From NCBI GenBank assembly GCA_965243205.1, contig CBDEUK010000002.1:64001-128000 (forward strand): a stretch of DNA of 64,000 nt, written 5' to 3'. How positions within the stretch are numbered: position 1 is the first letter of the stretch; each line of letters opens with the position of its first letter. Positions 2,447-29,882 of this stretch are shown piece by piece. Below the pieces are notes generated by a model, which saw only the letters and a list, made by a program, of their open reading frames with translations, did not search any database and was not told where the DNA came from. The DNA is from Gammaproteobacteria bacterium (lineage in GTDB: Bacteria; Pseudomonadota; Gammaproteobacteria; Eutrophobiales; Eutrophobiaceae). The position numbers were made by a program, and so were the translations under genes.

Positions 2447-2492
2447 CTCATAACCCGAAGGTCGCAGGTTCAAATCCTGCCCCCGCTACCAA
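2447..2492 (+). repeat. 46-bp duplicate of tRNA-Met 3' half (att site)
   Basis: CTCATAACCCGAAGGTCGCAGGTTCAAATCCTGCCCCCGCTACCAA, identical to 1370-1415. Confidence 0.95.
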
Positions 2493-4139
2493 TTGAACAG
2501 ACGGCTCGAAGTTATCGTTGTCATTAACAGCCATAGCTTCGAGCCGTTTTTCTATCTTTCCTTTGTCTTTCATCGCTTTATCCTCTGTGGCTATCCTCAG
2601 GATGCCTGCCAAGTCGCCATAGAGGTCGATAGACAGCTCGTCCTCACCGTCTTTGGACGAGAGCACGATCTTCTCAATCAGTCCTCGAACCTGTTCTCTG
2701 GCTTCAGCAGCTTTGCCGTCGCTAAGCGCTTTCGTTAGAGCCTCAATCTCAGACCTATATCGACGCGACATAGTGGGATGGATTAGCGGGCGCGGTTCGT
2801 CGTGCTCGTTTTCCGTCTGCGCCGCCAGTTCATCCAGTCTCGCGCTTACTCGTGCCAAATCGTCCTTGATCATTGAGGCTGGAACACCGTCCTTAATCGC
2901 CTGTACGATGTTTTCCCGCTCCTTGGTCAGCTTGGCCGCTTCTGCTTGGCGGCTGGCCAGAGCGGCATTTTGGGCGGCTCTCAGCGCGTTCATGTGGCGG
3001 GCATATTCATCGCAGAAGACCTGCACCAGATCATCCCGCATCAGGTGGCTCTGGAGGGCATTCAGGACTTTGCCTTCCAGCACGCTGCGTTTGATCGTCT
3101 TCTTGTTGGTGCAGACACTCTCGCCCTTGTTTCGGGCAGACGAACAGCCGTAACGCTCGCTGTTGATCTTGGAGTACCCGCCACCGCAGCTTCCACAAAC
3201 CAGTAGACCGGAAAGCAGATATTGAGGGCGCTTTCTGCTACCCAAGTGGCCCGAGCGCTTGTCCAGCGCTTTTTGACGTGCTTTGGCAGCCTCCCAGAGG
3301 CTTTGCGGCACAATCCTCAAATCCGGCACATTCTGGCGTATCCATTCGGATTCAGGGTTAAATCGAGGGACACGGCGTCCTGTAGTCGGGTCTTTGATAA
3401 ACCGCTGGCGGTTCCAGATCAGTTCACCAATATAGAGGTGATTGTTCAAAATGCCCGTGCCGCGTTTGCGGTTGCCATTGATTGTTGACTGTCCCCACGC
3501 CTTGCCCGATGGGCATGGAATTCCGTCTTCGTTTAGGCCGGAGGCTATGGCTTTTGGCGATTTATTCGCATGGGCGTATTCGTGGAAGATGCGGCGCACG
3601 ATTTCCGCCTGATCTTCGTCAATTGCCCGATCCCCGCGAATGGCTTCGCCTTGAGCATTGAACTGCTTGACCACGCGGTAGCCATAGGCAAGGCCGCCAC
3701 CGGACTTGCCATTTTCGACTTTGCCACGCAGGCCACGGCGGGTCTTGTCCGCCAAGTCCTTCAGGAACATGGCATTCATTGTCCCTTTCAGGCCGATATG
3801 CAGTGACGAAATTTCGCCCTCAGAAAGCGTGATGATCTTGACGCCAGCGAACTCCATGCGCTTGAAGATGCCTGCGATGTCTTCCTGATCGCGGGAAAGC
3901 CTGTCCAAGGCTTCCGCCAGCAGGATGTCGAATTCGCCATTCATGGCGGCTGTTAGAAGAGACTGGATGCCAGGCCGCATCAGTGAGGCACCGGATATGC
4001 CTGCATCGGTGTAGCAGTTGACGACTTTCCAATTCTCAGAGTCGGCGCGTTCGGAGCACAGCCGGATTTGATCTTCAATGGAGGCATCGCTCTGAAGATC
4101 GCTGGAATAACGCGCATATATGCTAATGCGTTGTGTCAT
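2448..4139 (-). CDS. Large serine recombinase (integrase)
   Basis: YARYSS catalytic Ser, LDRLSRD, recombinase domain, CxxC...CxxxR..C zinc ribbon, coiled coil; C-terminus LVAGAGFEPATFGL is encoded antisense by the tRNA-derived att. Confidence 0.93.
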   Translation of the reverse strand: MTQRISIYARYSSDLQSDASIEDQIRLCSERADSENWKVVNCYTDAGISGASLMRPGIQSLLTAAMNGEFDILLAEALDRLSRDQEDIAGIFKRMEFAGVKIITLSEGEISSLHIGLKGTMNAMFLKDLADKTRRGLRGKVENGKSGGGLAYGYRVVKQFNAQGEAIRGDRAIDEDQAEIVRRIFHEYAHANKSPKAIASGLNEDGIPCPSGKAWGQSTINGNRKRGTGILNNHLYIGELIWNRQRFIKDPTTGRRVPRFNPESEWIRQNVPDLRIVPQSLWEAAKARQKALDKRSGHLGSRKRPQYLLSGLLVCGSCGGGYSKINSERYGCSSARNKGESVCTNKKTIKRSVLEGKVLNALQSHLMRDDLVQVFCDEYARHMNALRAAQNAALASRQAEAAKLTKERENIVQAIKDGVPASMIKDDLARVSARLDELAAQTENEHDEPRPLIHPTMSRRYRSEIEALTKALSDGKAAEAREQVRGLIEKIVLSSKDGEDELSIDLYGDLAGILRIATEDKAMKDKGKIEKRLEAMAVNDNDNFEPSVQLVAGAGFEPATFGL

Positions 4140-4338
4140 GATCTAGTCCACCTCGGTTCGGACGATGGGCGACGCACGCATTAAAATCAGCTTCAGCGGC
4201 ACGTCGTGCCATTAGTTTTACGAGCCGGATCAGGCGCTCGTCAGGTGAGATGTGATTATGACTCGCAATTCCATGAGTCTTCAAATCCATCGCCCCATCA
4301 CGTCCGTTTGCCTTGTCCTTTCTTGGAAGCTTGCTCAT
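4123..4338 (-). CDS. Small protein upstream of the serine recombinase (candidate directionality factor)
   Basis: GGAGG RBS before ATG at 4338; helical LIRLVKLMARRAAEADF segment; overlaps the recombinase start. Confidence 0.55.
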   Translation of the reverse strand: MSKLPRKDKANGRDGAMDLKTHGIASHNHISPDERLIRLVKLMARRAAEADFNACVAHRPNRGGLDHDTTH

Positions 4339-4630
4339 CGCAACCCTCCAAGAAAAAACAGCGAGAGGCATATACATGCTCTCGCTGAAGTTCGGGGCTT
4401 GTGCGCCAGAGTTCGCGGGTTGAGAGCGAGCGTGCGATGGGTGATCCACACGCATACGAACTTGGCGACCAAATAAAAAAGAGCACTGGACGTGAAGCTG
4501 TCCAAAAATGCTCTCTTACCATCCATGGTAGTGTTGAAAACCTTAATAAAAGGTAAATAACAGCCCGAAAACCCGCAGTATTCTGCGATTTTTTGCAAAA
4601 ACTTGGATGTTCGCGGCTGAAATACCATTC

Positions 4631-5047
4631 TCAGGCCGCCTTTTTCAGGGTGATGCGCAGCACAATCCACGCGCCAACGAGTGATCCAATCCACCAAGGG
4701 ATATCGGATACCGAGAATTGTTCTAGGATTGCCGCGAACGCTAACAGCACCATTCCAATCGAGGCATACTCCAAGATGCTGGTGCGTTGTACCGCGTTCT
4801 CTATGCGGTATTCACCACGGCTCAAGATGGGAATCGCTTGGCGCTGATGCACCATGCGTCGCCAGATGAAGCTCCGATACCATGCCTTGAGTGCGCCAAA
4901 GAGAAGTAACCAAGGCGAGGCGACATACAAGTAATACGGCCAGTGTGCAGGGGTATAACGGCTATCGGCATTCCCTAAAACGCCGTATGCGCCATAGGCG
5001 AGTGCCAAGAGCAAAATGATGTTGATCCAAACCCGTTTCATCATCAT
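4631..5047 (-). CDS. Hypothetical membrane protein (~4 TM)
   Basis: Several hydrophobic segments; start overlaps the stop of the VirD4-like gene. Confidence 0.7.
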   Translation of the reverse strand: MMMKRVWINIILLLALAYGAYGVLGNADSRYTPAHWPYYLYVASPWLLLFGALKAWYRSFIWRRMVHQRQAIPILSRGEYRIENAVQRTSILEYASIGMVLLAFAAILEQFSVSDIPWWIGSLVGAWIVLRITLKKAA

Positions 5048-6663
5048 TAGTCCCCGTCGAATACCTTATCGAGTGCCTTGCCGATATCGAAGCCGGCACG
5101 CTGAAAATTGACGGGCGACGCCAGAGGTCGATCCGCATAATGCGGATGGATATCGAACAACGGGCTGCCATCCTTTTTGCGGTAGCGCTTATCCAGAAAA
5201 TACGCGGTCTTGAAACACGCAACCGGATAGGCGTGCGACAGGATGAGAATTTGCGCCGCAGGGTGCATCGTTGTGACTTCATCGGGTGTAATCAGACTAC
5301 GGGAAATCAAGCCATCATCGCGGCTCAAATAGTACGGGTCGGACAACAATCCGGCACGCCGTTCGGCACTGGCGTGGCTAACGGATTCAACTGTACCGAT
5401 CCCGCAAAGGCGCGACGTATATTCGGACGTCATCAGATCGTTCGTTCCGAAGATCTGAATGACGCCGCTATTGGCAACGAAGGTCTGCCAGCGTTGTTGG
5501 TATAGGTCTGCGAGCTGATTGAAGTCCTGTACGATCATGTGAAGTTGCATACCGTATCCGGCCATTAGCCCGTAGGCTGTCTCGATAGTTTCCATGCGCC
5601 CCAAGGCCGCCGCTTCTTCAATCAAGAAGTAAACAGGCGGATCGGGCTTGGTCTTGAATCTCGTCACCGCCGTAATGGCGATGCTGATTAACATCCGCAG
5701 AAAGCGGTTGTACGTGAATAGGCGTCCAGCAGGCAGGACGATGAAAATACTTGTCTTGCCGTTTTCCAACTCATCGAATGAAAAGTCTGTTTCTGACAGC
5801 GCACGCTGGATACGTGGGCTTTCGAGAAAATGTGTGTTTTGCTGTGCCGTGGACATAACGCCGGACAGTTCCTTGGAAGCCTTGTTCAGGATACGCGCAG
5901 CCGCAGCGCGGACATACTCATTGCGGCTCTGCGCCATACCCGGATGCACAAGATGAACATTGTCGTCTTCGTCTTTCTCGAAACGACCGCCGACCATTGC
6001 TTTGAAGTCACGCGCAGACAGATTCAGCAATCGGCGAACTTGGGCAAGGTCACGCGATTTCTTGTCCGTTGGGATCAACGGCAGTGGCGTGGCCGCCACG
6101 TACAGGATCAACCCCATAATCAGGTTGCGGGCTTCGTCGTTCCAGAAGGGTTCCTTAACGCCTCGATCCGTAACTATGCTGTCTGCAATGAGAAGTGCGT
6201 CTTCCACAAAGTCATCTCTGTCAGGATCGAGCCAGTCAAGTGGGTTAAATCTTGCTGGTGACACTCCCAGATAGGAGCAGACTTCATCCCAAGGATCGAC
6301 GATGACCAACTTGTGGCCAAGAACATCGCGACGATATCGGCCACAGATTAGCGATAGTTCACCGTCCTTTACGTCAACACCCAAGAAAGAACCCCAATGA
6401 TCCATACAGCGCGGCGCCGAGCTGGTTAGCAGCTTGCCGCTGCGAGTAGGGGCGACGGTGAGCAGGTGGCGTTGCGTGTTTGAGGTAATAGCGAATGCAC
6501 TTCCTTTGGCATTATCCGGCAAGCCATAGCCGAGGAAAATTTTTCCATTTTCTCCATAGTGACGTGTTTTCAAATGCGCTTTGTCTGCCCAACGGGCGGA
6601 ACCGTGCATGTTCGGATCGCGACTATAAATACGCGCCGCTTCATATTGCTCACGGGTTTGCAT
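5047..6663 (-). CDS. Type IV coupling protein, VirD4/TraG family, without an obvious N-terminal TM anchor
   Basis: HGSARWA motif, Walker A APTRSGK, DVKDGEL, RFNPLDWL, Walker B FLIEEAAALG, IVQDFNQLADLY. Confidence 0.88.
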   Translation of the reverse strand: MQTREQYEAARIYSRDPNMHGSARWADKAHLKTRHYGENGKIFLGYGLPDNAKGSAFAITSNTQRHLLTVAPTRSGKLLTSSAPRCMDHWGSFLGVDVKDGELSLICGRYRRDVLGHKLVIVDPWDEVCSYLGVSPARFNPLDWLDPDRDDFVEDALLIADSIVTDRGVKEPFWNDEARNLIMGLILYVAATPLPLIPTDKKSRDLAQVRRLLNLSARDFKAMVGGRFEKDEDDNVHLVHPGMAQSRNEYVRAAAARILNKASKELSGVMSTAQQNTHFLESPRIQRALSETDFSFDELENGKTSIFIVLPAGRLFTYNRFLRMLISIAITAVTRFKTKPDPPVYFLIEEAAALGRMETIETAYGLMAGYGMQLHMIVQDFNQLADLYQQRWQTFVANSGVIQIFGTNDLMTSEYTSRLCGIGTVESVSHASAERRAGLLSDPYYLSRDDGLISRSLITPDEVTTMHPAAQILILSHAYPVACFKTAYFLDKRYRKKDGSPLFDIHPHYADRPLASPVNFQRAGFDIGKALDKVFDGD

Positions 6664-7702
6664 AGCTACCTCCCGCGCATTCCTGCACGCTCAAGACTTT
6701 CTGCGTCCGGTAAGCGGCGCTGAGGGAGTGAAAGTACCTTGTCAGGTTTTGGCTGATATCAGAGGTACTATGGAGAAAGGCATCTGCCAATCCAGTGAGA
6801 TAGCGGTCTTCACGCAGGCCAAGAAAATAGACAAAAGTCAGCGTATTGTTCTTGGCTGCTTCTACCTGTTGTCGGAGCGCGTCATCGGTGCCGATCTGTC
6901 CATCGGTTATGACAATGACCGCTTTTTGATGATTATCGAAATACGACTGATTCAGACTGTCATAGGCACTGGCGAGTGGGCGATACAAATCCGTCCCTCC
7001 CTCAGCGACCAGTGAATCCAGTTTGAAGTCTCCGGCGTTGCAATTTTGATAAACATTATTGTGATAGCTGTAGCCACTACTGAAGCTGGCAACGGCGCAC
7101 TCCGCTGTTGGCGGCAATCCCTTCAAGAACTCGTTAGCGCTTTGCTGGACATCGGAGACAACGCTGGCCATTGAGCCGGAACGATCTAGCAAGAGCGTAA
7201 AAGCCATTTTCGGCGCGGCGCTGGTAACGGTCTTGTAGTCAAAACAGAGTTTGCGCCCGCCGATGGTATAGACCGCCAAGCTGTCCGCAGGCGGTGAAAC
7301 GAAGTTTCCATTACTGTCCTTGAAGCTGGTGATAATCTGCAAACCGTTGGGGGTCTGCCTAGTCCTGATGATCTCGGACGTACCACCGCTGAAGGCGACG
7401 ACAAGATCATTATCCAGATCAATATCAAAGCCCGACGTTATGCGGATACCACGCGCATCGGTCATACCGATATTCGATACTGTTCGGATCAGGACATCGG
7501 ACGGCAGTAGCTTCGGATCAGTTCTGACTTTCAGCGATATGCTTTGTTCGAAGTCGTAACGGCTTCGAAGAACAATTGTCGGGGCTATGGCCTCAGTGCG
7601 GGACGTGATATTGATCGACGCATCCTGCGCAAGGCTAGCTGCCGAGATTAAGCCACCGACACACAAAGTGCCGATGGCCGCAGAAAGTTTTACACATTTC
7701 AT
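6650..7702 (-). CDS. Secreted/periplasmic vWA-domain protein
   Basis: Signal peptide; MIDAS DRSGS, GGTDL, VITDG. Confidence 0.85.
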   Translation of the reverse strand: MKCVKLSAAIGTLCVGGLISAASLAQDASINITSRTEAIAPTIVLRSRYDFEQSISLKVRTDPKLLPSDVLIRTVSNIGMTDARGIRITSGFDIDLDNDLVVAFSGGTSEIIRTRQTPNGLQIITSFKDSNGNFVSPPADSLAVYTIGGRKLCFDYKTVTSAAPKMAFTLLLDRSGSMASVVSDVQQSANEFLKGLPPTAECAVASFSSGYSYHNNVYQNCNAGDFKLDSLVAEGGTDLYRPLASAYDSLNQSYFDNHQKAVIVITDGQIGTDDALRQQVEAAKNNTLTFVYFLGLREDRYLTGLADAFLHSTSDISQNLTRYFHSLSAAYRTQKVLSVQECAGGSYANP

Positions 7703-12077: not shown

Positions 12078-12405
12078 CGCGTACCGCCTTCGATTTCTTG
12101 CGAATGGACTTCGGTAGCAGTGCTAGTTTGTCCTTGGTCTGGTTCAGGTGTTTGGAAAGCGTGGTTTCATCAGCGTCAAAGAGCTTTACCCTGACAATGG
12201 TGGCCACTTCAAACATCGCGCCGATTTCGCACTTAAGGTCGCCTTTTTCAATGCGTTGCAGCAGACCTCTGGAAATGCCCGCACGGTCGGCCACTTCCTG
12301 AGCGGTTAGCTTGCGTTCTTTGCGTGCTTCACGGATCAGTGCGCCAAGCAATGCAGTTGCATCGCGGCTGTATCGAGAATAGGTACGTGTAATTGACTTT
12401 GGCAT
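12067..12405 (-). CDS. XRE-family HTH antitoxin (HipB-like)
   Basis: IREARKERKLTAQEVADRAGISRGLLQRIEKG HTH; overlaps the hipA start. Confidence 0.88.
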   Translation of the reverse strand: MPKSITRTYSRYSRDATALLGALIREARKERKLTAQEVADRAGISRGLLQRIEKGDLKCEIGAMFEVATIVRVKLFDADETTLSKHLNQTKDKLALLPKSIRKKSKAVRDDF

Positions 12406-12416
12406 CGCTCAAAAAC

Positions 12417-12550
12417 TGATCTGTATATAGCCCACAAAACTGCCTCATGGGCTTTCTATGAACCAAAATAGTAGCTCTGAATGATTTTGTCAAGATAAAA
12501 ATGATCCTTATATAGATCATAAAACGCTTTTGTGATCTATATGTAGTGCA
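12417..12550. promoter_or_regulatory. Four putative HipB-type operators (TGATC-N8-GATCA consensus)
   Basis: Sites at 12417-12434, 12448-12465, 12502-12519 (perfect) and 12533-12550, upstream of the antitoxin; same 5-8-5 geometry as E. coli hip operators. Confidence 0.6.
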
Positions 12551-12553
12551 TTT

Positions 12554-13867: not shown

Positions 13868-14131
13868 GTGTCAAAAAACGTGTGAAAATTGTGTGAAAAT
13901 TTCAATATACAGCGAATACGTAAAGATACCCTTTACGTCAATGGCTTAATCGAAACACACAGTGAGCAAGCGTTTGGTTTTTAGCGGTGAATGTTGGGAA
14001 TTGTGTGAAAATGGCTCCCCGGGCCGGATTGGAAATGCTCTTTTGAGGCAGGCTAGAGCATTGAAATAGCTTTCTTATTATTCTTCGCTAAGTTTCTGTG
14101 TGTGAAAATTGTGTCAAAAAGTGTGTGAAAA
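13867..14131 (+). repeat. attP-like region: seven direct TGTGT(G/C)AAAA repeats around a tRNA 3'-end-like core
   Basis: Repeats at ~13867, 13880, 13890, 14002, 14099, 14110, 14122; core 14012-14030 reads AATCCGGCCCGGGGAGCCA on the minus strand (tRNA-Asn-like 3' end with CCA). Confidence 0.75.
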
Positions 14132-14133
14132 AA

Positions 14134-15436: not shown

Positions 15437-15449
15437 GCCGCTCTTTTTT
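15423..15449. terminator. Intrinsic terminator between convergent genes
   Basis: AGAGCGGC-aactaa-GCCGCTCT followed by a T run. Confidence 0.7.
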
Positions 15450-17100: not shown

Positions 17101-17112
17101 CGGGATAATTTG

Positions 17113-20100: not shown

Positions 20101-22005
20101 AAGTTGATGGTGGACAACAGCGCTCGACGGACTCGGCAAAAAGAGTTGGATATTCGGGTGATCATGAGCAACCCGCCATACTCCGCCGGTCAAAAAAGTG
20201 AAAATGATAATAATGCAAACATAGCCTACAGCAATTTGGATGGGCGCATTCACGATACATACGCAGCGCATTCAACAGCTACTACTACCAAAACTTTGTT
20301 GGATTCATATATTCGTTCGATGCGTTGGGGAAGCGACCGTTTGGGTGACAGTGGCGTTATGGCATATGTCAGCAATGCTAGTTATTTGGATGGCAACTCT
20401 ATGGATGGATTACGAAAGTGCTTACGCGAAGAATATAGCAGTCTCTATGTATTTCATCTGCGAGGCAATCAGCGCACATCTGGAGAGCAGTCGCGTAAAG
20501 AGGGAGGAAAAATATTTGGGTCTGGGAGTCGCGCCCCTATAGCGATAAGCCTGTTTATCAAAAATCCAAATAAAGAAAAACGCGGGAATATTCACTTTTA
20601 CGATATCGGCGACTATCTAAGCCAAGATGAAAAGCTTGCAATCGTTTCTGAGTTTAAGAGCATAAATGGTATTGCCGCTGATGATGCTTGGCAAACCATT
20701 AAGCCCGATAAACACAATGACTGGCTTAACCAACGAGATGACAGTTTTGACGAGCATATAGCGCTAGGGAGCAAAAAGGATAAGACTGCTAAAGCGTTAT
20801 TTGAAACATATTCACAGGGATTGCAAACGAGCAGGGATGCGTGGTGTTTTAACGCTTCGAAAAAAGTTCTTCAATCCTGCGTCAAAAGAATGATCGACTT
20901 TTACAACTCAGAAATTGTTCGACTTGAAGAATATAGAAAGGAACATCCAGATACAAAAGCTAGCCAATTTGTCACTAAAGATTCAAAGAAAATAAGTTGG
21001 TCGAGTAGCCTTTATCCAAAAGTGGACAAGGGAATTTTGGCTTCGTTATCACTGAAAAGCATCGTCAAATCGCACTACAGGCCTTTTGAAAAACAGTGGC
21101 TTTTTTATGATGACATGTTCAATCACCGACAAAGCAAAATACCGAATATATTTCCGGCAGAAGGTTTTGACAATTTGGTGATTTGTGTAACCGGCACTGG
21201 GGAAAGCAAGGAGTTTTCTGTATTCATCAGTGATTCCATACCAGAGTATAAGACGCATTATAACTGCCAAAATTTTCCGCTAAAAATATATGAAAAAAAT
21301 ACGGAGACCTCTGCCAATGATCTTTTCGCGCCAGAGGCGGGGGAAGAGGATTATATTGTCAAAGACGGAATTACAGATGTTGGGCTTGCGCATTTCGAAT
21401 CGGCTTATCCAAAGGAAAATATCACTAAGGAAGATATTTTCTTCTATATCTATGGCTTGCTACATTCGAAAGACTATCGAACTCGCTATGAAGATAACTT
21501 ATCAAAGCAACTGCCGCGCATACCATTTGTAAACACCGCTAAAGACTTTTGGGCATTTAGCGAAGCAGGAAGAAAGCTTAGTGAATTACATGTGGGATAT
21601 GAAGACGCTGATCTTTACCCAGTAAAGTTGGAGGGCAATCCCAATACCGATAAAGATTACTATGTTACAAAAATGAAGTTCGGTAAGTCTGGCAAAGAAA
21701 AGGACAAAACCACGATCATCTATAACGAGCATATCACTATCAAAAACATTCCGGTCGAAGCGTATGAGTACGTAGTGAATGGGAAGCCCGCTCTCGAATG
21801 GGTCATGGAACGCCAATCCGTTAAGACTGACAAAGCCAGCGGAATAATTAACGACGCCAATCTCTACGCTATTGAAACAGTTGGCAATGCGAAGTATCCC
21901 TTAGAATTACTTCAACGAGTGATAACGGTAAGTCTGGAAACGATGAAGATCGTAAAGACGTTGCCACCGTTAGATATTGACGTTGCCGGTCAGGGGGGCG
22001 CATGA
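17113..22005 (+). CDS. Type ISP restriction-modification enzyme (LlaGI/LlaBIII-like)
   Basis: Mrr-like nuclease (DTGIDLV..IQSK), SF2 helicase (MACGTGKT, DEAH, TATP, QSVGR), N6-MTase (DPFTGTG, NPPY) and C-terminal TRD in one polypeptide. Confidence 0.92.
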   Translation: MTALQKLLDSFRTAAVTEREKGTYFEELTRTYLRHEATYRDLYSDVWLYADWAKEQGIDGKDTGIDLVAKTNGTDEFHAIQSKFYAEDYRVQKSDIDSFFTASGKKPFTHRIIVTTTNNWSENAEDALQGQQPPVSKIDLFDLENSQIDWSKFQPNQKPVLKEKYGLRAHQKKALSEVKANLKNADRGKMIMACGTGKTFTSLRVAEDLAGSGKRVLFLVPSLALLSQTLTEWTQQSLIPLHSFAVCSDSDIGKKRKKDDDVVQTFMHELRYPATTNAKSLADEMAKRHDAAHMSVVFSTYHSIAVISEAQKKHGLGDFDLIICDEAHRTTGATFEGEEESKFVKIHDNSFIRGKKRIYMTATPRIYGDSAQASAEKDNVALCSMDDESLYGKDLHVITFSEAVERGLLVDYKVIVLTVDEAHISKRLQSLLANENNQLKVDDAAKIVGCWKALSKQDQEDGLADDSDPMQRAVAFCQVIEATTGKKTHKVSSKNIANMFQAVVEAYQEQEEDHNTLVCEAAHVDGSMNATEKEAKLQWLKQETPKDTCRILSNVRCLSEGVDVPALDAVLFLTPRNSQVDVVQSVGRIMRKAPNKTRGYVILPVVIPTGMEPSKALNDNKIYKVVWEVLQALRSHDDRFDAMINKLDLIGKDNRKMEVIAITDKIKPKAKKTTGTKNKDAGKRSYSIGEKEAEYQPSQSELQFEVGEIERALYAKVVQKCGNRSHWEDWAKDIAKIAKTHITRITTIVTDSKNKKEVAAFQSFAKELRDDLNDSITDGEVIEMLAQHLITKPVFDALFKEYSFASHNPVSQAMQKVLDILQEHRLDKEADTLEKFYNSVQMRAEDIDSAEGKQKIVVELYDKFFRNAFPRMTERLGIVYTPVEVVDFIIHSVNDVLQSEFGQTLGSKGVHIIDPFTGTGTFITRMLQSGLISKEQLPHKYKNEIHANEIILLAYYIAAINIEAVYHSLVGGDYQPFEGICLTDTFQLYEKDDMVSKLMVDNSARRTRQKELDIRVIMSNPPYSAGQKSENDNNANIAYSNLDGRIHDTYAAHSTATTTKTLLDSYIRSMRWGSDRLGDSGVMAYVSNASYLDGNSMDGLRKCLREEYSSLYVFHLRGNQRTSGEQSRKEGGKIFGSGSRAPIAISLFIKNPNKEKRGNIHFYDIGDYLSQDEKLAIVSEFKSINGIAADDAWQTIKPDKHNDWLNQRDDSFDEHIALGSKKDKTAKALFETYSQGLQTSRDAWCFNASKKVLQSCVKRMIDFYNSEIVRLEEYRKEHPDTKASQFVTKDSKKISWSSSLYPKVDKGILASLSLKSIVKSHYRPFEKQWLFYDDMFNHRQSKIPNIFPAEGFDNLVICVTGTGESKEFSVFISDSIPEYKTHYNCQNFPLKIYEKNTETSANDLFAPEAGEEDYIVKDGITDVGLAHFESAYPKENITKEDIFFYIYGLLHSKDYRTRYEDNLSKQLPRIPFVNTAKDFWAFSEAGRKLSELHVGYEDADLYPVKLEGNPNTDKDYYVTKMKFGKSGKEKDKTTIIYNEHITIKNIPVEAYEYVVNGKPALEWVMERQSVKTDKASGIINDANLYAIETVGNAKYPLELLQRVITVSLETMKIVKTLPPLDIDVAGQGGA

Positions 22006-24005
22006 GTAATGTCAATATAAAAAGGGCTGTAGAAAACATACGTTCTGGCACGACCGTCTATACGCCGCTTGTCGAGATGATCGTTAATGCGATTCAGGCC
22101 ATCGACAGTAAAAAGACAGAGGACGGTGAAGTTCAGGTAATCGTCAAGCGCTCCGGCCAAGAGGACATAGAAAACAAAATCCCGCCGGTAGAGAGCTTCC
22201 TAATCACGGATAACGGTATCGGATTTACCGATGAAAATCGGGATTCATTTGATACGTTGTACTCAGACTTCAAGATTTCGCAGGGCGGAAAAGGTTTCGG
22301 GCGTTTTACATGCTTACGATACTTTGAGGATTTGCACGTCGATAGCATTTATTCCGAAGGTCAGGCATTCAAACGCCGAAAATTTTCGATGGGGAGAGAC
22401 AATGACATCATTGTTAGTGAAAAAATCGAAGATACAGGCGAAAAGAGTTCTAAAACAACCGTAACGCTTTCATCGGCCAAGGACGGCAAGTTCACCGATA
22501 AGAAGCTATCAACCATTGCCAGAGTCTTGGTTGAGAAGTTGTTGCCGTATTTCATTGCACAAGACTATTCCTGTCCGAAAATATCGCTCATAGATGAGGG
22601 GAAATCGGAGGGCATTATCCTCAATGAGTTCGTCAGCAATGAGCTATCCGGCTTGATTAAGGAGATGAATGTTGCCGATGGCCACTATTCACTGAAAGGT
22701 ACACACGCGGATCATCAATTTTCAGTGCGCGTGTTCAAGTTCTATTCACCCAAGAGCCAGCGTAGCAAGATTAGCTTGGTGGCTCATAGGAGGGAGGCGA
22801 CTGATACAGCTATTCACAACTACATTCCAGAGTTTATCGATGAGTTTTACGATAAGGACGATACCGGATCGGATGACGTCGAGAAAAACTATATCGTAAA
22901 GGCGTATGTGTTTAGCGATTATCTCGATGACAACGTATCGCTGGAACGTGGTGGCTTCGAATTCCAAAAAGACAATGATCTTTTACTGGGCGTTTCTCAA
23001 AGTGATATTGAAAGTGCTGCCGCACAGATCGCCAAAGAAGCTGTTGGCGAAGATATTGTGGCGCGTCAGGAACGGAAGGTGGAGCGTGTTCGCTCATACG
23101 TTGAAGAGGAAGCACCGTGGCACAAGGCGATCATAGCAAGCGTTGATCTATCAACAATGCCGTACAAACCCTCTGATGCGGAAATAGAGGCTTTGCTACA
23201 AAAGGAGAAATACAAGCAAGAGGTTCAAATAAAGGGCAAGGTCAATAAGTTGCTCAATGAAGCCACGATTGACGATCTAAAGACCGATGTGCGCGAGATC
23301 GTCAATCAGATATCCGAAACAAGCAAGAATGACCTCATCCACTACATTGCCTTGCGCCGTGATGTGCTGAACCTCTTCGAAAGAAACTTGGAGCTTGATC
23401 CAGACGGTCAGTATTCGTCCGAAGGCACAGTGCATGACATCATCTTTCCGCGACGGCAAGACGACGAAGGCACATTCTTTGAAGAACACAACTTATGGAT
23501 CATTGATGAACGTCTGAATTTTACCAACTACGTTTCGTCGGACTTGCCCCTCAATGGAGGCAACTCGGAAAGACCGGATTTACTGGCCTACGATAACCGT
23601 GTGCTATTCAGGGGTGACAATGAGGCCAGCAATCCCGTCACAATCTTTGAGTTTAAGAAACCGCAGAGAGATGACTTCGTAAATCCTTCATCCAAGGAAG
23701 ATCCGGTTCAGCAAATCGTCCGGTACGTGAATAGCATTAAGGCCGGTGATTACAAAACACCAAAAGGCCGGAAAATACTGGTTGCTGAAAATACGCCATT
23801 CTATGGCTATGTGGTTTGTGATTTAACCAGCAAGGTAGAAAAGTGGCTTGAAACTGAGAAGGACTTCAAGCCGATGCCGGATGGCCTTGGATGGTTTCGC
23901 TGGCATGGAAATATCAACTTGTATATCGAAGTCATTAGTTGGGACAAAGTTCTGAAAGATGCAGGTATGAGAAACAAAATATTCTTCAAGAAGTTGGGAA
24001 TATAA
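22002..24005 (+). CDS. GHKL (HATPase_c/MORC-like) ATPase with C-terminal PD-(D/E)XK nuclease
   Basis: EMIVNAIQA, DNGIGF, GGKGFGRF Bergerat motifs; C-terminal ERPDLL...IFEFKKP; ATGA overlap with the R-M gene. Confidence 0.82.
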   Translation: MSNVNIKRAVENIRSGTTVYTPLVEMIVNAIQAIDSKKTEDGEVQVIVKRSGQEDIENKIPPVESFLITDNGIGFTDENRDSFDTLYSDFKISQGGKGFGRFTCLRYFEDLHVDSIYSEGQAFKRRKFSMGRDNDIIVSEKIEDTGEKSSKTTVTLSSAKDGKFTDKKLSTIARVLVEKLLPYFIAQDYSCPKISLIDEGKSEGIILNEFVSNELSGLIKEMNVADGHYSLKGTHADHQFSVRVFKFYSPKSQRSKISLVAHRREATDTAIHNYIPEFIDEFYDKDDTGSDDVEKNYIVKAYVFSDYLDDNVSLERGGFEFQKDNDLLLGVSQSDIESAAAQIAKEAVGEDIVARQERKVERVRSYVEEEAPWHKAIIASVDLSTMPYKPSDAEIEALLQKEKYKQEVQIKGKVNKLLNEATIDDLKTDVREIVNQISETSKNDLIHYIALRRDVLNLFERNLELDPDGQYSSEGTVHDIIFPRRQDDEGTFFEEHNLWIIDERLNFTNYVSSDLPLNGGNSERPDLLAYDNRVLFRGDNEASNPVTIFEFKKPQRDDFVNPSSKEDPVQQIVRYVNSIKAGDYKTPKGRKILVAENTPFYGYVVCDLTSKVEKWLETEKDFKPMPDGLGWFRWHGNINLYIEVISWDKVLKDAGMRNKIFFKKLGI

Positions 24006-24020
24006 GTAGATGAGGAAGCA

Positions 24021-26615
24021 GTGTCCGTCCTGAAAGAAATACTTGAGTGGTCTTCCGAGCGCCCAACTTGGCAGCGTGATGCTTTACGCCGCCTAGTTCT
24101 CAACGACGAGCTTTCGGAGGATGATGTTCGAGAGCTTGGGAAAATCTGCAAAGGGGCGCACGGTCTGAGTGAACAACAGGATGCTTTGCCCCTAACGAAA
24201 GATCATATACCTACAGCAGACACCACCTCATCTCAAGTTGTCCTAGACTCAATCTTTCATCATCGCGGGGTCAACGCGCTGGCCGAAAACCAGACCTTGC
24301 ATTTTTCTCCTGCTCTTACGGTTGTATATGGTGACAATGCCGCAGGTAAGACCGGATACATCAGGATTCTGAAAAGCGCCTGCCGTGCTAGAGGGCAAGA
24401 GAACATACTTGGTAATGTTGTGTCCGGTAGTACCCCTCATACACCAACCGTTTCAATCAAATACAAGATTGGAAACCAGTCGGAATTGCAGGAATGGGCT
24501 GGTGAAGGCGAAGATGATTTTATCGCTCGCGTAAGTGTTTTCGACACTCAATCTGCGGCTGTCTATCTAACAGAGAAAACAGATGTTGCATTCAGGCCAT
24601 TCGGTCTTGATCTTTTCGATAAACTGGTAAAAGCATGCAAGGCTGTTCGGTCAAATCTGGAAAGGGAACAACGTGCACTAAACACAAACGATCTGTTTGC
24701 ATTACAGAGTCAGATACCAGACGGTACGCGGGTTGCAAAACTGCTTACGGGTATTTCATCGTTGACAAAACCAGAGGCCGTGCAGTCACTTTCACAATTT
24801 TCCGAGGAAGAAAAATCTCGCTTTGCATTGCTGGAAAAATCTTTGCAGGATTTGCAAGCCAATGATCCGGAAAAGTTAGCACGGCAAATGACACTCCGTG
24901 TAAGTCGCATACGAACCCTTGTTAAACATCTTCAATCAGTAGAAAGGATTCTTTCGGAAGAATCGATTTCCACAGTGTTCGATGCCAGAACGGAGGGGCG
25001 TCGCAAGAGTGAAGAAGCAAAAAGGCTTCGTGAAGCAACATTTCCAAAAGGAGTGCTTGAGGGAACAGGCTCGGAGATTTGGTCCCAACTATGGGACGCT
25101 GCACAACGATTTTCCGAAGAATCAGCCTATCAGGGTCAAGAGTATCCAGTTGTCGAAAATGATGCCCAGTGCGTTCTATGCCAACAGGAGCTAGATGACG
25201 CAGCGACCCTGAGACTCAAACAGTTCCAGACATTTGTAACGTCTACAACTGAGCGTGAGCTTCGTGAGTTGCGCGAGAAATACGCCAAAGCGAAACAGGA
25301 GTTTGTGGATTTTCAGACCAATAATGAAGTAATCCAAGAGACGATCAAGGAAATCCGTATTGAGGACGAAGAATTTGCGAATGCCGTGTCCACCGCATTA
25401 GATAGCAATGATCACCGTCGCACAAATATCGTAAACGCTTTGAATGAAAATCAGGATATTTCATCGGATTGTCCAGAAATGGTAGCAATATCTGGTGAGG
25501 TTGAGGCATTAGCTGGCCAGCTTGAAGAACGTATTAAAACTCTTAGTGGCAGTATCAAAGCGGACGAGAAAAAGCGCATGGACGCAGAGGTGCTGGAGTT
25601 TCGTGCCCGCAAGATACTAGCGGAGCATGAGGAAATCGTACTTAATGAAATCGAGCGAAAGAAAAAGTTGGCAGCGTATGAGCTATGCCTCAATGATACT
25701 AAGACGCAATCAATTACCCAGAAAAGCACGGCTGTTACAAAAAAATTCGTCACAAGTAAGCTTAAGGACAGTTTCAGCGACGAATTGGAAAATCTTGCTT
25801 TTCGTCATGTTGAGGTGGAATTGAAAGAAGCCGGAGGTACAGAAGGAGTTCTGTATCACAAGCTTATTTTGACTCGCGCACCAGGCGTGGAATTACCGCG
25901 TGTGGTGAGTGAAGGTGAGCAGAGGTGCTTGTCTATTGCAGCGTTTTTTGCGGAATTAAGTACCGCAGATGATCCGTCAGGTATTGTGTTTGACGATCCT
26001 GTTTCATCGCTTGATTACAAATGGCGCGAAGGTGTTGCTAAACGACTTGTCTTAGAATCGCAGCAACGCCAAGTTATTGTCTTTACCCATGATGTTGTAT
26101 TTTTGCTTCTGCTTAAGCAGTTTTCGGAAGAGTTGGATGTTGACCAACTAGATCAACATGTAAGGCAACTTTCTATCGGCGCGGGTGTTTGTGCGGAAGA
26201 GCTACCGTGGGTTGCATTACCGATAAGGAAGAAGATTGGATTCCTAAAAAACCAGTATCAGGGCGCGGAAAAGTTGCATCGAGATGGACACCAAGGAGCT
26301 TACGAAAAGGAGGCTAGTTATATATATGGCCTTCTTCGAGAGGCATGGGAGCGAGCGCTCGAAGAGGTGCTGTTAGGAGGGGTAGTAGAAAGGTATCGCC
26401 CTAGTGTCCAGACGCAGCAGGTTATACAAGTTGCAGACATAACGGACGATGACTGCAAGGCTTTAAGCGCGGCAATGACGAAATGCTCCAAATGGTTGAC
26501 CGGTCACGATCAAGCAGCGGCAGCAAGAGCAGAACTTCCTGAGCCAGATGCTCTAAAGGCGGATATCGAAGAGTTGGAAAACTGGGTATCAGCCATTCGC
26601 AAGCGCCGCAATTAG
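24021..26615 (+). CDS. SMC/Rad50-like ABC ATPase (AAA_13, RloC-like architecture)
   Basis: Walker A GDNAAGKT, coiled coils with CVLC zinc hook, signature SEGEQR, Walker B FDDPVSSLD, H-loop FTHD, helical C-terminal domain. Confidence 0.8.
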   Translation: MSVLKEILEWSSERPTWQRDALRRLVLNDELSEDDVRELGKICKGAHGLSEQQDALPLTKDHIPTADTTSSQVVLDSIFHHRGVNALAENQTLHFSPALTVVYGDNAAGKTGYIRILKSACRARGQENILGNVVSGSTPHTPTVSIKYKIGNQSELQEWAGEGEDDFIARVSVFDTQSAAVYLTEKTDVAFRPFGLDLFDKLVKACKAVRSNLEREQRALNTNDLFALQSQIPDGTRVAKLLTGISSLTKPEAVQSLSQFSEEEKSRFALLEKSLQDLQANDPEKLARQMTLRVSRIRTLVKHLQSVERILSEESISTVFDARTEGRRKSEEAKRLREATFPKGVLEGTGSEIWSQLWDAAQRFSEESAYQGQEYPVVENDAQCVLCQQELDDAATLRLKQFQTFVTSTTERELRELREKYAKAKQEFVDFQTNNEVIQETIKEIRIEDEEFANAVSTALDSNDHRRTNIVNALNENQDISSDCPEMVAISGEVEALAGQLEERIKTLSGSIKADEKKRMDAEVLEFRARKILAEHEEIVLNEIERKKKLAAYELCLNDTKTQSITQKSTAVTKKFVTSKLKDSFSDELENLAFRHVEVELKEAGGTEGVLYHKLILTRAPGVELPRVVSEGEQRCLSIAAFFAELSTADDPSGIVFDDPVSSLDYKWREGVAKRLVLESQQRQVIVFTHDVVFLLLLKQFSEELDVDQLDQHVRQLSIGAGVCAEELPWVALPIRKKIGFLKNQYQGAEKLHRDGHQGAYEKEASYIYGLLREAWERALEEVLLGGVVERYRPSVQTQQVIQVADITDDDCKALSAAMTKCSKWLTGHDQAAAARAELPEPDALKADIEELENWVSAIRKRRN

Positions 26616-26621
26616 AGTAGC

Positions 26622-26801
26622 TCAAGGGCATGGTGCCCTTGAAGCCAGTTCATTTTGAATATTCTCGATGGATGCCAGTGCGTTTCTGCGCTGATGAGTA
26701 TCAGGCTCACTTCTCGCAAGTTCGTTAAACGCCTCTCTCAAATATGCGTGCAGCTCGTTTTTGTTCTTGGCTGCCAGTTCAAATCGCGTAACCAGTGTCA
26801 T
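26622..26801 (-). CDS. Small hypothetical protein (59 aa, absent from the ORF track)
   Basis: CAGGAGG RBS; MTLVTRFELAAKNKNELHAYLREAFNELARSEPDTHQRRNALASIENIQNELASRAPCP*. Confidence 0.65.
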   Translation of the reverse strand: MTLVTRFELAAKNKNELHAYLREAFNELARSEPDTHQRRNALASIENIQNELASRAPCP

Positions 26802-27299
26802 TGTTACCTCCTGTTCTTGGAGGCCGCGACCATCGCGGCCTTATCAGTGGCCGCTTGTGCGCAGGAGGTCATGATTTGCACCTATGGTCGAAATATATGG
26901 AGAAGCGTGTCCGAACAGGATCGGCACGCTTGCTGGTCTATGGCTTACTGATGCAACGAATAGGTCACTCGAAAAGGCCGCAGGTTGCGGCTGGAAAGGA
27001 TGGAGCGTTACGAGTAATCGGTACGCATTGAAGGACAGTCATCGAAGATGAGCGGCCATCAATGGAAGAGAAGGAAGTATTCACCTTGCAGGTGAGCATG
27101 ATAGATCGAGAAGCAATTGAGGGGCATTGCATCCCCTCTGAATAAAGAAAAATGACGGTTTCCAGCGGAGCCAGACCCTCCGCAATTTTTCTGGATTCTT
27201 TCACCCCCGCCTAGTCGGCCTAGTCGCCAGAGGTTCATGAGCAGCGCACCACAAGCGGTGCTTGTAAGAACCTCAACAGCGAATTTAGGAGCAAAGACG

Positions 27300-27815
27300 A
27301 TGAGTGAAGAAATCAGAATTTATGTGGCAGACCTCGCAGCCTATAACAACGGCAAGTTACACGGCGTATGGATAGATGCGACCCAAGACATTAACGACAT
27401 TCAAGACCAGATTAACGCCATGCTGGCCGAAAGCCCCGAAGGCTTCGCGGAAGAATACGCCATTCACGACTACGAAGGGTTCGGTGGTTATTCTGTGAGC
27501 GAATACGAAGGTATTCAGTCATTGCATGAAATTGCCTGTTTCATTGAAGAGTATCCCGACCTTGCAGGGGAATTGCTGAGCCACTTTGGCGGACATCTTG
27601 AGGATGCCAGAAAGGCTATCGAAGAGAATTATTCCGGTTGCTACAAGTCCCTTGCGGACTATGCCGAGGAACTTACCGAAGGCACCAGCCAGATTCCTGA
27701 AAATCTCGCTTACTACATCGACTATGAGCGCATGGGGCGTGATATGGATTTAAGTGGGGATATTTACACCATCGAAACGGCCTATGAAGAAGTACACGTT
27801 TTCTGGAGTCATTGA
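27300..27815 (+). CDS. ardA: Antirestriction protein ArdA
   Basis: IYVADLAAYNNGKLHGVWID, EEYAIHDYEGF, YYIDYERMGRD; very acidic; AGGAG RBS. Confidence 0.93.
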   Translation: MSEEIRIYVADLAAYNNGKLHGVWIDATQDINDIQDQINAMLAESPEGFAEEYAIHDYEGFGGYSVSEYEGIQSLHEIACFIEEYPDLAGELLSHFGGHLEDARKAIEENYSGCYKSLADYAEELTEGTSQIPENLAYYIDYERMGRDMDLSGDIYTIETAYEEVHVFWSH

Positions 27816-27945
27816 TCGCTGAGAGTGATGCCGCCGGATCATCCGGCGGCAAATTTTCGTTTTCGTCCTGTTTCAGGGGAGGAAAAAATTTGCGCCGCCA
27901 AGCCTTGTTCCGGCTTGGCGGCCTGTCGCGGCTTACAGAGGCCGC

Positions 27946-29289
27946 TCAGAGTTCCGGCTCCATGTCTATATCGGGATCGTCCATGTCTAGATCGTTATCG
28001 AATTCCCGCTCGAACTCGCCGCGCTGATCGAATTCAAGGTCATGGAGCCAGTTTTTTTCAAGAGCTTCATTGCCCTTGGCCTGTTCCTGCAACGTGAATT
28101 GTGACAGATCGCGAAACAGGTCTTTGCGTTCCTTGTCCTGTTTTTCGCGTAGCAGGTTGATCTGCACTTGCAGGTTTTGACGTTGCGTAAGCTGTTTATG
28201 GATCAGTGCTTCGCGCTCTTTCTGATCGCGTTTGTGCGCCTGCCATGTTTCCTGCTCATTGCGCTTTCTGGTTTTCCAGTAGCGACCGTTGATCTTGTCC
28301 CATAATCCCTTGAAACCTTTGCGAACGCGGGAAGAACGCTTCAGTTCTTCGGCCTGCCAGCGTTCCTGTTGAGTGGCTTCCAGATTCGCACGCTCTTTTC
28401 GCTGCATCGTGACCATTTCCAGCTTTGCAGCCTTGAGCGGCTGCTTTGCCTTTCGGTGTTCACGGGCAAGGTCATCTGTATAGTTCCGAAAGAGTTTGCT
28501 AAGCCTGCCATGGATGTTGGTTTTGATGTCATCGACGGAAGGCAGGCTTTCAGCCTTTCCGAGACGCGCTTCCAGTGCTTTCTTTTTCTGACCAAGCTGG
28601 CGGGTCAGCGAATAGACCTCGCCATGCAGGTCAACGGCGACGTGGCCACGTTTTCCTTTCGCTAGATAGTAGCCTTGCTCTTGCAGAGCATTGGAAAAAC
28701 TCTGTTTGCTGTCCGATATCGCCCAGCTTTCCTGTAATTCGCGCTTGATGTCGGACGGCTTGCGGCCAATGCGTAAAGCCTGTTGCCATTCGGCGCGGGT
28801 GTAGTTAAGAGGGTTCTTGCGGCTTTTGTCCCGAAACCCGTCCGGCATCTGCCAGCCGTTTTCCAGATAGAGCGATTTGGCTATCTCGTTCAGCTTGATC
28901 TTGGGGTGCGAAATATTGATGGCCTTCATTTCCTCGGTATCAATCCGGCTCCAGACACAGTGAGCGTGACGGCGGCCTTCCTTCTCATGGAAAACGACAA
29001 CACGCGGCTGACCTTCCAGTCCGAGCTTCTTTTCAACCCGATCCAACGTGGTCTCGAACGTGTCGATGGAAACCCGCTCGTTCTGCGGAGGGTTCAGGCT
29101 CAGGGCATACATGAATTGCCTGCATTGCGTGCCCTTGGACAGGGCATAGGCTTCGTTCAGTGCCCCCAATACGTCAGAAGCAATAAACCCACGAACCTCG
29201 TGGACATTCACATGCTCGTTTTGCTCGCCGTTGAGCAGGTGTAGCGCCATTTGCCGCCCTCCGGCACGCTGGTTGCCTTTAAGGATCAT
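27946..29289 (-). CDS. Relaxase/mobilization nuclease (MOBP/VirD2-like)
   Basis: MILKGNQR N-terminus, LSLNPP, HUH motif FHEKEGRRHAHCVWSRID, coiled-coil C-terminus. Confidence 0.88.
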   Translation of the reverse strand: MILKGNQRAGGRQMALHLLNGEQNEHVNVHEVRGFIASDVLGALNEAYALSKGTQCRQFMYALSLNPPQNERVSIDTFETTLDRVEKKLGLEGQPRVVVFHEKEGRRHAHCVWSRIDTEEMKAINISHPKIKLNEIAKSLYLENGWQMPDGFRDKSRKNPLNYTRAEWQQALRIGRKPSDIKRELQESWAISDSKQSFSNALQEQGYYLAKGKRGHVAVDLHGEVYSLTRQLGQKKKALEARLGKAESLPSVDDIKTNIHGRLSKLFRNYTDDLAREHRKAKQPLKAAKLEMVTMQRKERANLEATQQERWQAEELKRSSRVRKGFKGLWDKINGRYWKTRKRNEQETWQAHKRDQKEREALIHKQLTQRQNLQVQINLLREKQDKERKDLFRDLSQFTLQEQAKGNEALEKNWLHDLEFDQRGEFEREFDNDLDMDDPDIDMEPEL

Positions 29290-29710
29290 CGCTCGACCCC
29301 TCGAATGGCTCTGGTGGCGGTTGCTGGCTTTGCGGCTTCAGCCCCATTCCTTCTATTAAGGTGTCGCGCATCCAGCGAATGGCCGCTACCGCATCATGCA
29401 GGCTTTGCAGCACTTCCTCGTTGACGGGCAGGGAGCCTGAGTTGGCCGCCTTTGCGAGCTGGTTGATGTTGCTGGCGATACGGGATTGCCCCAACGCGCC
29501 AAGCAGCTTGGCCAGCAACTTCTGATCCTGAATCCTTGGCTTGCGGGAAGGCGGTGGCCGGACGCCGTTTTGCAGTATCGCGTCCTTGATAAACTGCCCC
29601 AACGGCTGGCCATCGGCCAGTTTTGTCAATTCAGCACGTTCCTGTTCAGTCAGGCGAACCGAGAACGGCGCTGGATAGGTCTTCTTAGAGGGAGGACGCT
29701 TTCTAGCCAT
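29279..29710 (-). CDS. mobC: Relaxosome accessory protein MobC
   Basis: RHH N-terminus PFSVRLTEQERAEL and SRIASNINQLAKAAN motif; overlaps the relaxase start. Confidence 0.88.
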   Translation of the reverse strand: MARKRPPSKKTYPAPFSVRLTEQERAELTKLADGQPLGQFIKDAILQNGVRPPPSRKPRIQDQKLLAKLLGALGQSRIASNINQLAKAANSGSLPVNEEVLQSLHDAVAAIRWMRDTLIEGMGLKPQSQQPPPEPFEGSSDDP

Positions 29711-29865
29711 TTTTTCGCCCTCCCATTGATGCAGAAGGGGTTTTTCGGTTAGGATTCGCGCCCAGAACGGTGCGGGCTCCCTCTAAGCTAGACAGTAACG
29801 CACTAAGGGGTTGCGGCTTAGAGGCGATATCAAAGGCAGTGACTAACGGTAGATACCGTTGGCAG

Positions 29866-29882
29866 CCTGCCCCCGCTACCAA
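29866..29882 (+). repeat. 17-bp tRNA-Met 3'-end repeat (distal att of the island)
   Basis: CCTGCCCCCGCTACCAA, identical to 2476-2492 and 1399-1415; composition turns AT-rich right after it. Confidence 0.9.

Follow-up and report, generated by a model that had tools for sequence, protein, structure and literature searches.

In a 64,000-nt stretch of the genome of a Gammaproteobacteria bacterium of the family Eutrophobiaceae (contig CBDEUK010000002.1, positions 64,001 to 128,000, hereafter the window), an island of 27.4 kb is inserted at a tRNA-Met gene, and the attachment (att) core that bounds it lies inside the 3' end of the island's own large serine recombinase gene (int). We consider it probable that joining of the island ends, on excision or in a tandem array, lengthens the recombinase (Int) and couples int to the genes for the relaxosome accessory protein MobC and the relaxase. 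The layout is conserved among relatives, the joined form exists as DNA in other contigs, and the tail that joining adds to Int is under weak constraint at the protein level. A switch of this kind had been proposed in an original prediction made from the letters of the window, and its interpretation is supported by the comparisons with related loci described below.

The chromosomal target is the tRNA-Met gene with anticodon CAT at 1338..1414 on the plus strand (ARAGORN), the final 17 bases of which are the att core. This 17-mer, CCTGCCCCCGCTACCAA, occurs exactly three times in the window (1399-1415, 2476-2492 and 29866-29882) as against a mean of 0.00 copies in 100 shuffles, and its first 16 bases have no further match in the 2,793,537-bp genome. 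The first copy makes up the tRNA gene's 3' end. The second, the core of the left site attL, ends a perfect 46-nt copy of the tRNA 3' half (2447..2492, plus strand, identical to 1370-1415) that runs from the anticodon loop to the CCA end. The third, the core of the right site attR, lies within the imperfect palindrome TTGGCAGC-N8-GCTACCAA at 29859..29882; its arms (29859-29866 and 29875-29882) are complementary at 7/8 positions and it is centred in the core, so that the near-perfect inverted repeat predicted across the core is borne out when read from the sequence. The palindrome is absent from the repeat-finder list because it holds no 6-nt exact seed. Between the second and third copies the GC content is roughly 50% (0.42-0.56 per kb from ~2.5 to 29.9 kb, versus 0.28-0.40 outside). 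The three core copies and the GC steps therefore point to two insertions in tandem within one tRNA gene, the other being a 1-kb islet of host-like GC (1416..2446, plus strand) which lies between the two perfect 46-nt tRNA copies and encodes HicB-like (1711-2046, PF15919) and HicA (2046-2309, PF07927) proteins, without a recombinase of its own. This islet looks like a second insertion into the same tRNA gene, older or later than the island. The search for an empty site in relatives matched the right flank in 0/30, and the nearest genus member was only ~71% identical in the left flank.

In the integrated state Int has 563 aa (2448..4139, minus strand) and ends SVQLVAGAGFEPATFGL, that is, SVQLVAGAG followed by FEPATFGL and the stop. 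The tRNA copy 2447-2492, read in antisense, provides the final 14 codons and the TGA, and this TGA (2450-2448) is complementary to the TCA within CTCATAA, the anticodon loop, i.e. to U33-C34-A35; the open reading frame (ORF) and the sequence thus confirm that the tail and stop of the integrated protein are supplied by the antisense tRNA copy, as had been proposed. At the other end of the island an ORF at 29703-29933 on the minus strand reads ..LVAGAGCQRYLPLVTAFDIASKP...GGRKNG, with LVAGAG in the same register on the right core and 53 codons after it. This tail-coding stretch (29703..29865, minus strand, 53 codons and TAG) continues the int frame beyond the core and lacks its own start codon within the element; homologous tails occur in 44 further loci and on 18 long Int proteins. 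The plus strand at 29703-29710 is CTAGCCAT and the coding strand ATGGCTAG; the TAG of the tail therefore begins 5 nt after the A of the mobC ATG, which agrees with the original prediction both in the frame that stays open past the right core and in its overlap with mobC. As the att core falls inside the int ORF, int has different 3' ends in the integrated and joined states, as is characteristic of the Mx8 type discussed below. With the ends joined, Int has 608 aa and the gene order is VWA, type IV coupling protein (T4CP), orf138, a 175-nt gap, orf110, int, mobC and relaxase, the successive overlaps being 14, 1, 17, 8 and 11 nt. When the tail stretch was shuffled with its composition preserved, 21% of trials had an open frame among the two that are usable. 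An open run of such length is thus not rare by itself, and its significance comes from comparison with relatives.

The predicted int-attP-mobC-relaxase joint, attP being the joined site, is present as DNA on four other, metagenomic contigs (L027, L036, L038 and L050). On each of them T4CP, orf138, long int, mobC and relaxase follow one another, and Int and tail share a single frame with 610-638 open codons, the count being taken from the stop before it. Two further loci (L018 and L033) have the joint layout too, cut by the contig start, and the attR type, in which the core is preceded by unrelated DNA for at least 170 nt, is found in the window and 24 metagenome loci. The two ends of Int are also found among proteins. 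The 120 closest Int homologues (63-97% identical) were sorted by their C-terminal end, two by eye and the rest by pattern. ..GFEPxTFGL-like ends were found in 72 and ..GSGG(W/R)I ends in 23, which makes 95 with antisense-tRNA tails altogether; 18 were long forms with a tail homologous to the hypothetical one of the window (17 of 604-633 aa, and P0110, which has 554 aa and is N-terminally incomplete), and seven had other ends. The long form P0050, for example, reads LVAGAGCQRYLPLFVAHDIASKPP..MGGRKNG. Another homologue, P0089, carries an annotation to Aurantivibrio plasticivorans. Both short classes represent one antisense tRNA 3' end in two reading frames, TTG GTA GCG GGG GCA GGA TTT GAA CC.. 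giving LVAGAGFEP and GGT AGC GGG GGC (A/T)GG ATT TGA giving GSGG(R/W)I and a stop. Among 400 other genomes of the class, three have an Int match at E <= 1e-100 and int abuts tRNA-Met in all three, which indicates that tRNA-Met is the target of the Int family.

The open frame was followed further in 82 mobC loci, comprising 80 metagenome loci kept from a scan with a MobC alignment, the window and the genome locus L017; as these loci were picked by MobC similarity alone, the state of the upstream frame was not prejudged. The tail lies upstream of mobC in 45 of the 82, and its frame is uninterrupted in all 45 (L056 being truncated where its contig begins). Measured from the start of mobC (taken as GTG in L040), the tail stop lies at +5 in 19 loci, -4 in 17, -3 in six, +1 in two and -9 in one. 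The homologues hence keep both the open frame and the ending at mobC that had been predicted, and early stops after the att core, the outcome named beforehand as speaking against the prediction, were not seen in the 45 tail-bearing loci. A frame-blind nhmmer profile of the tail DNA matched 44 of these 45 and no other locus, so broken tail copies were not overlooked. At 80% nucleotide identity the 32 tails that were aligned make up 22 clusters, and in four lineages the tails have only 28-35 codons and still end at the mobC start.

These frames bear on the explanation that the open frame is a by-product, in which the DNA between core and mobC would be kept as att arm and origin of transfer (oriT) with no meaningful translation, and mobC would have its own promoter and ribosome-binding site. 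We regard this as very unlikely. Shuffles predict 7.6 open frames among 37 tested loci (about 20%), as opposed to the 45 of 45 found, and the stop, in five different arrangements, is never more than 9 nt away from the mobC start. The ratio of nonsynonymous to synonymous differences (pN/pS) is lowest in the Int frame of the tail, at 0.44, 0.54 and 0.59 across three identity bands compared with 0.68-0.88 and 1.07-1.91 in the two shifted frames, and differences at codon positions 1, 2 and 3 are 0.38, 0.35 and 0.52. A natural control is provided by 11 related mobC loci with another tRNA-like core (ten of the TTGGTTGCGGGGG type, and L043), which have no tail and no open frame ending at the mobC start.

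The start of mobC lies in a predicted RNA hairpin (29690..29724, minus strand, found as an inverted repeat and by folding) in which its Shine-Dalgarno sequence GGGAGGGCG is paired with CGUCCUCCC inside mobC, while the ATG and the tail TAG are in the loop. The minimum free energy is -19.8 kcal/mol (z -2.7) and the probability that the Shine-Dalgarno sequence is paired is 0.88. Across 43 family loci the predicted pairing probability of this sequence has a mean of 0.77 and the fold energy a mean z of -2.1, as compared with 0.53 and -0.8 for 33 non-family mobC loci and 0.60 and 0.06 for 17 other island genes. The pairing arms vary by locus, e.g. UUCUGCCC/GGGCAGAA, AAGCCCC/GGGGCUU and CCCCUCC/GGAGGGG. 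Upstream, between attR and the adjoining host gene, lies a terminator-like hairpin of that gene (29963..29990, minus strand) with 12 pairs and a T run, and a scan by crude consensus match gave no sigma-70-like match on the mobC strand between this hairpin and mobC. The promoter scan of 2300-5100 gave one match as against 2.1 expected and is uninformative for an int promoter.

From this layout we infer the following course of events. In the integrated island, Int would be read into the antisense tRNA and stop at the anticodon, giving the 563-aa protein, while mobC and relaxase would be severed from int and lie behind a start-less 53-codon stump and the terminator-like hairpin of the host, with the mobC ribosome-binding site predicted to be folded away; mobC would then be silent. 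On a circle or at a tandem joint, the int frame would run through attP for 53 codons more and end on the mobC start codon, in one co-oriented chain of VWA, T4CP, orf138, orf110, Int (608 aa), MobC and relaxase. Transcription that begins upstream of int would cross attP and reach mobC, and ribosomes finishing Int would open the hairpin, start MobC and then the relaxase by way of the 11-nt overlap. MobC and relaxase would thereby be expressed only after excision, the relaxosome being made mainly on the excised element, where nicking is useful, and the two Int isoforms may differ in activity. The copy in the window may itself be active at present. In its fullest form, this would amount to a recombination-gated translational relay, widespread in marine Proteobacteria, in which Int takes its stop from the tRNA-Met anticodon loop when integrated or from the mobC start region when excised, Int-terminating ribosomes open the hairpin that hides the Shine-Dalgarno sequence, MobC and relaxase are made in step with Int and only on transferable molecules, and two Int subfamilies reach the same end through two frames of one core. 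We put this fuller version forward tentatively, as quite possible yet short of probable.

A number of observations weigh against the coupling of int to mobC on joining, and they are taken up here together with the other explanations that bear on them. The tail-bearing loci are mutually related, and their counts overstate independence. The two Int subfamilies use different frames for the sequence that immediately follows the core and converge only at A.DI.SKP. A 9-bp perfect inverted repeat, CCTCTAAGC-N27-GCTTAGAGG (29780..29824, repeat finder), lies inside the tail, and its arms encode the conserved motifs SKP and LEG; the same repeat occurs in L027, L030 and L032, and shorter versions in L019, L051 and L055. 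Some of the conservation therefore concerns the DNA itself, for instance an att half-site or perhaps an oriT, and the repeat may be a candidate oriT or protein-binding site. Both the coincidence of inverted repeats with conserved motifs and the conservation of att-proximal DNA across two reading frames would be expected if the open frame were the by-product considered above, and so would the lack of a consensus RNA structure: 26 aligned mobC leaders gave a consensus fold of 0 pairs with no common structure, a null result explained by hairpin registers that differ between loci. The hairpins are per-sequence predictions in these differing registers and the control leaders are fairly paired too (0.53-0.60), so that the support they may lend to coupling is moderate.

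The tail is also predicted to be disordered. In the AlphaFold2 model of P0050, built on an 84-sequence alignment, the last folded element lies at about residue 519 and residues 520-612 have a predicted local distance difference test (pLDDT) value <50; the predicted disorder takes in the tail and the 35 residues preceding it. In view of this disorder, the coupling of the genes looks more important than the tail peptide. This bears equally on the explanation that the selected function is a switch between Int isoforms, in which the long form made from attP would be distinguished by its activity, specificity or stability from the short form made from attL, and the ending at mobC would be secondary. 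Such a function could account for the weak purifying selection on the tail in the Int frame and for tail motifs that are common to alpha- and gammaproteobacterial long forms, and it has precedents in IntP/IntX of Mx8 (PMC6070905) and in the ssrA-tagged repressor of BPs-type phages (PMC9262239), as described in the relevant passages. We consider it unlikely as the selected function, for the disorder of the tail is joined by the four lineages that keep the end at the mobC start with tails of 28-35 codons, by the use of two frames for the first part of the tail, by the occurrence of an ssrA-like ..LAA ending in 0/38 tails compared, and by the C-terminal GG of the tail, which is the mobC ribosome-binding site read as codons. 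We conclude that the tail frame appears to be kept open and translated, with the peptide under weak constraint.

The remaining points concern excision. Assembled contigs of public sequencing runs showed neither joint nor empty site, although Logan contigs break at the tRNA copies and cannot show rare circles, and the run with the same species label had only tRNA-like pieces among its contigs. Two contigs, of 0.88 and 1.2 Mb, together carry four of the long forms, which means that the joint can occur within chromosomes as well, probably where elements lie in tandem, and that the long form is not strictly a marker of the excised circle. These observations would fit a fixed relic, in which the copy in the window no longer excises and the long forms elsewhere arise only from tandem arrays or from assembly across repeats, as would the decay seen nearby in related loci, where L017, L022 and L044 have only an int 3'-end fragment before the core, which suggests decayed neighbours, and one of the genomes with an Int match (G396) has a truncated int. 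We doubt that the island is such a relic, given that int, T4CP, mobC and relaxase are full-length ORFs in the window, that the two cores are identical, and that 14 of the 18 long forms are on contigs under 75 kb, besides the limit of the Logan contigs just given. The coupling of int to mobC on joining remains the reading that we favour.

Viral contigs searched with the long form P0050 gave no relative. The plasmid collection contains 65 records with Int relatives, at most 54% identical among the matches listed; with the 612-aa P0050 as query, 68 records were matched, none beyond residue 578 among the matches listed, and no long form was seen. MobC had a match in one plasmid record only. A sequencing run labelled as another organism (X9) has contigs of a close int relative corresponding to window 2465-4200, with ~68 differences over 870 bases.

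Some loci depart from the common arrangement. Distant tail-less mobC loci (L088-L090, L092, L096, L097, L070, L094, L095 and others) carry a different conserved small ORF (..ETSNR..LEEWNDYLK..) whose stop is mostly 1-2 nt from the mobC start, i.e. a second, independent upstream frame ending there. L031 has a ~114-bp direct repeat at 3690-3830 which includes the exact core and further antisense tRNA sequence, and L060 (647-970) has two cores 153 nt (51 codons) apart inside one open frame. In L045 and L046 the tail motif stands behind a different core (..HRGGLSLLPTLS..), and the tail module may have moved to another target site there. With regard to the target, the anticodon stem of the window's tRNA-Met is closed by three G-C pairs and position 1:72 (T/T) is unpaired, features by which we take this tRNA to resemble an initiator tRNA. 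A relative in the same genus (L005, on G001:C27) has two extra partial copies of the tRNA-Met 3' end, of 37-41 nt, just downstream of the same radical-SAM/tRNA-Met locus, and the site seems to be a hot spot for insertion in relatives as well.

Int carries the resolvase-type catalytic domain at its N-terminus (PF00239, E 5.9e-25) and the recombinase and zinc-ribbon domains (PF07508 and PF13408) of large serine recombinases, all above their cut-offs; the P0050 model has long helices at 370-446, in keeping with the coiled coil of that class. Serine integrases act at a central dinucleotide within short att sites and without host factors, and the core of the island shows, in this respect, the imperfect palindrome given above. 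Residues R10, Y11, S12 and S13 are at least 90% conserved among 84 Int homologues, and the catalytic serine is presumably located in this motif. The closest NCBIfam model is CcrB, with a score far below its cut-off. Within the 3' end of int, 9 nt from the core, there is a 21-nt inverted repeat (window 2501-2547, 86% complementary, 5-nt loop), the outer arms of which encode the conserved RLE and FEP; these apparent protein motifs may thus reflect a DNA or RNA hairpin. The start of int is overlapped by the small orf110 (4123..4455, minus strand), which has no Pfam family and has tblastn matches upstream of int in relatives. Its C-terminal motif (SHN..S.DE.I.LV+.+ARRAA.EDY) is kept just upstream of int in L027 (1854-2189), L038 (1890-2144), L014 (3132-3251) and L036 (2034-2117), and the ORF may be a candidate regulator or directionality factor. 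Further upstream, on the same strand as int, are orf138 (4631..5047, assigned by ORF coordinates), T4CP (5047..6663; PF02534, PF12696, PF10412) and the VWA protein (6650..7702; PF13519), with ends overlapping one another.

At the other end of the island, the minus strand encodes the MobC-type protein (29279..29710, PF05713) and the relaxase with a MobA/VirD2 nuclease domain (27946..29289), whose start overlaps the end of mobC by 11 nt. The relaxase scores 49.9 bits with PF03432 (cut-off 24.6) and 52.4 bits with the NCBIfam model TraI_MobP_relax, below its cut-off of 250. The island thus has its own recombinase and flanking att repeats at a specific tRNA site, as is expected of an integrative mobilizable element (IME). 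Relaxase, MobC and coupling protein were found, and for oriT only the candidate inverted repeat at 29780-29824. No type IV secretion (mating-pore) family was present among the 22 larger island ORFs, which were scanned against Pfam. With the relaxase side present and no mating-pore family in the 22 ORFs, the island looks like an IME.

The cargo region as a whole spans 10818..27815. It holds a HipA/HTH pair (10818-12405, Pfam), a tyrosine-recombinase-like DUF6538 protein (12554-13867, minus strand), a Type ISP restriction-modification enzyme of 1631 aa (17110-22005, plus strand, Pfam), a HATPase_c protein (22002-24005, plus strand, Pfam), an AAA_13 protein (24021-26615, plus strand, Pfam) and ArdA (27237-27815, Pfam). 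The Type ISP enzyme and the HATPase_c and AAA_13 proteins after it form a defence block (17110-26615, plus strand), and the anti-restriction protein ArdA lies beside the relaxase. The DUF6538 gene was considered as the integrase of the island and rejected; it is mid-element and has weak matches to the integrase family, and the att core lies within the serine recombinase gene in every relative seen. Its position mid-island beside HipA/HTH could mark a nested or fused element. Outside the island, a secreted-looking protein of 1383 aa with a cadherin domain (30007-34158, minus strand) directly adjoins attR.

The arrangement recalls several known systems. Mx8 Int is a tyrosine integrase of a phage and Tn916 also uses a tyrosine integrase; as Int here is a serine recombinase, the element works like the Mx8 type and is not a member of the Mx8 Int protein family. 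In Mx8 attP lies inside the int coding sequence, according to the passage on IntP and IntX, so that integration supplies int with a different 3' end and alters the protein; the effect described there is on enzyme specificity, and coupling to a downstream transfer operon is no part of that description (PMC6070905). In mycobacteriophages of the BPs kind, which have integration-dependent immunity, the attP core shared with a tRNA 3' end is likewise inside a gene, integration swaps the C-terminus and the stop codon comes from host DNA adjoining the core. That gene is the repressor, however, the integrase is a tyrosine integrase, and the passage reports an ssrA-like degradation tag that is lacking in the tails here (PMC9262239).

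Closer in enzyme class are the ssrA-specific islands of Dehalococcoides, which carry the CcrB-like serine recombinase DsiB (McMurdie et al. 2011, PMC3146451). As described in the passages concerned, DsiB is a large serine recombinase at the edge of a mobilizable island, and its ORF always overlaps attL at the 3' end and finds its stop only outside the island, in the antisense of the small-RNA gene; the authors speculated that DsiB perhaps works fully only when it is on the circle or next to a further island (PMC3146451). The likeness to our Int that is drawn here is one of description. The target there is ssrA in place of tRNA-Met, the overlap is divergent in length and sequence, and in the same passages no conserved circle-form tail is shown, no link to a mobC-relaxase operon is made, and a second small recombinase, DsiA, is present (PMC3146451).

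As for expression, the passage on Tn916 describes DNA-processing and conjugation genes that are promoterless when integrated (PMC11658703, citing Celli and Trieu-Cuot 1998) and are not expressed until circularisation lets a promoter at one end read over the joint, while a terminator insulates the element from host transcription (PMC11658703). Indirect signs of this type in the window are the co-orientation of genes, their overlapping ends, the terminator-like hairpin of the host and the lack of a promoter-like match in the scan. The link in Tn916, as far as this passage goes, is transcriptional with an antiterminator RNA, and no reading frame crosses the joint. With respect to the site, the C089B-type Ni islands of Mesorhizobium and IMEMlR88B-like elements share the tRNA-Met 3' end, with a 14-bp direct repeat, a serine recombinase and mobilization genes, but these genes are traACD and the islands are of 53-172 kb; the passage concerned says nothing on int crossing att (PMC10990125). 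The closest Mesorhizobium plasmid match to Int is 34.7% identical to the P0050 query among the matches listed. The serine-recombinase IMEs of Firmicutes such as Tn4451 are also mobilizable elements moved by a large serine recombinase, and the relevant passage gives them very short flanking repeats (2 bp in Tn4451), unlike the 17-bp repeat that restores the tRNA gene here, and states that they disrupt dispensable genes or have low site specificity (PMC5704250).

An att site inside a gene and expression that depends on circularisation are thus already known, from Mx8, DsiB, mycobacteriophage immunity and Tn916, and the int-mobC joint can be regarded, on this comparison, as a variant of these. 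We found no description of this Int family or of an int-mobC reading-frame joint in the open-access literature. The tRNA-restoring serine integrases with a 17-bp core differ from the Firmicute examples given in the passage cited above (PMC5704250). For annotation, the 563-aa proteins in databases represent the integrated isoform, and their last eight residues (the last two in the second subfamily) are tRNA antisense. Why the gene of a serine recombinase should extend over its att site was a question that the Dehalococcoides islands raised in 2011, and the family described here offers many natural variants in which to test it. If the coupling proposed here is true, the junction would be used as a coding joint and not as a promoter joint alone, and these elements would have a simple, protein-free way to silence their DNA-nicking machinery in the chromosome and to switch it on at excision.

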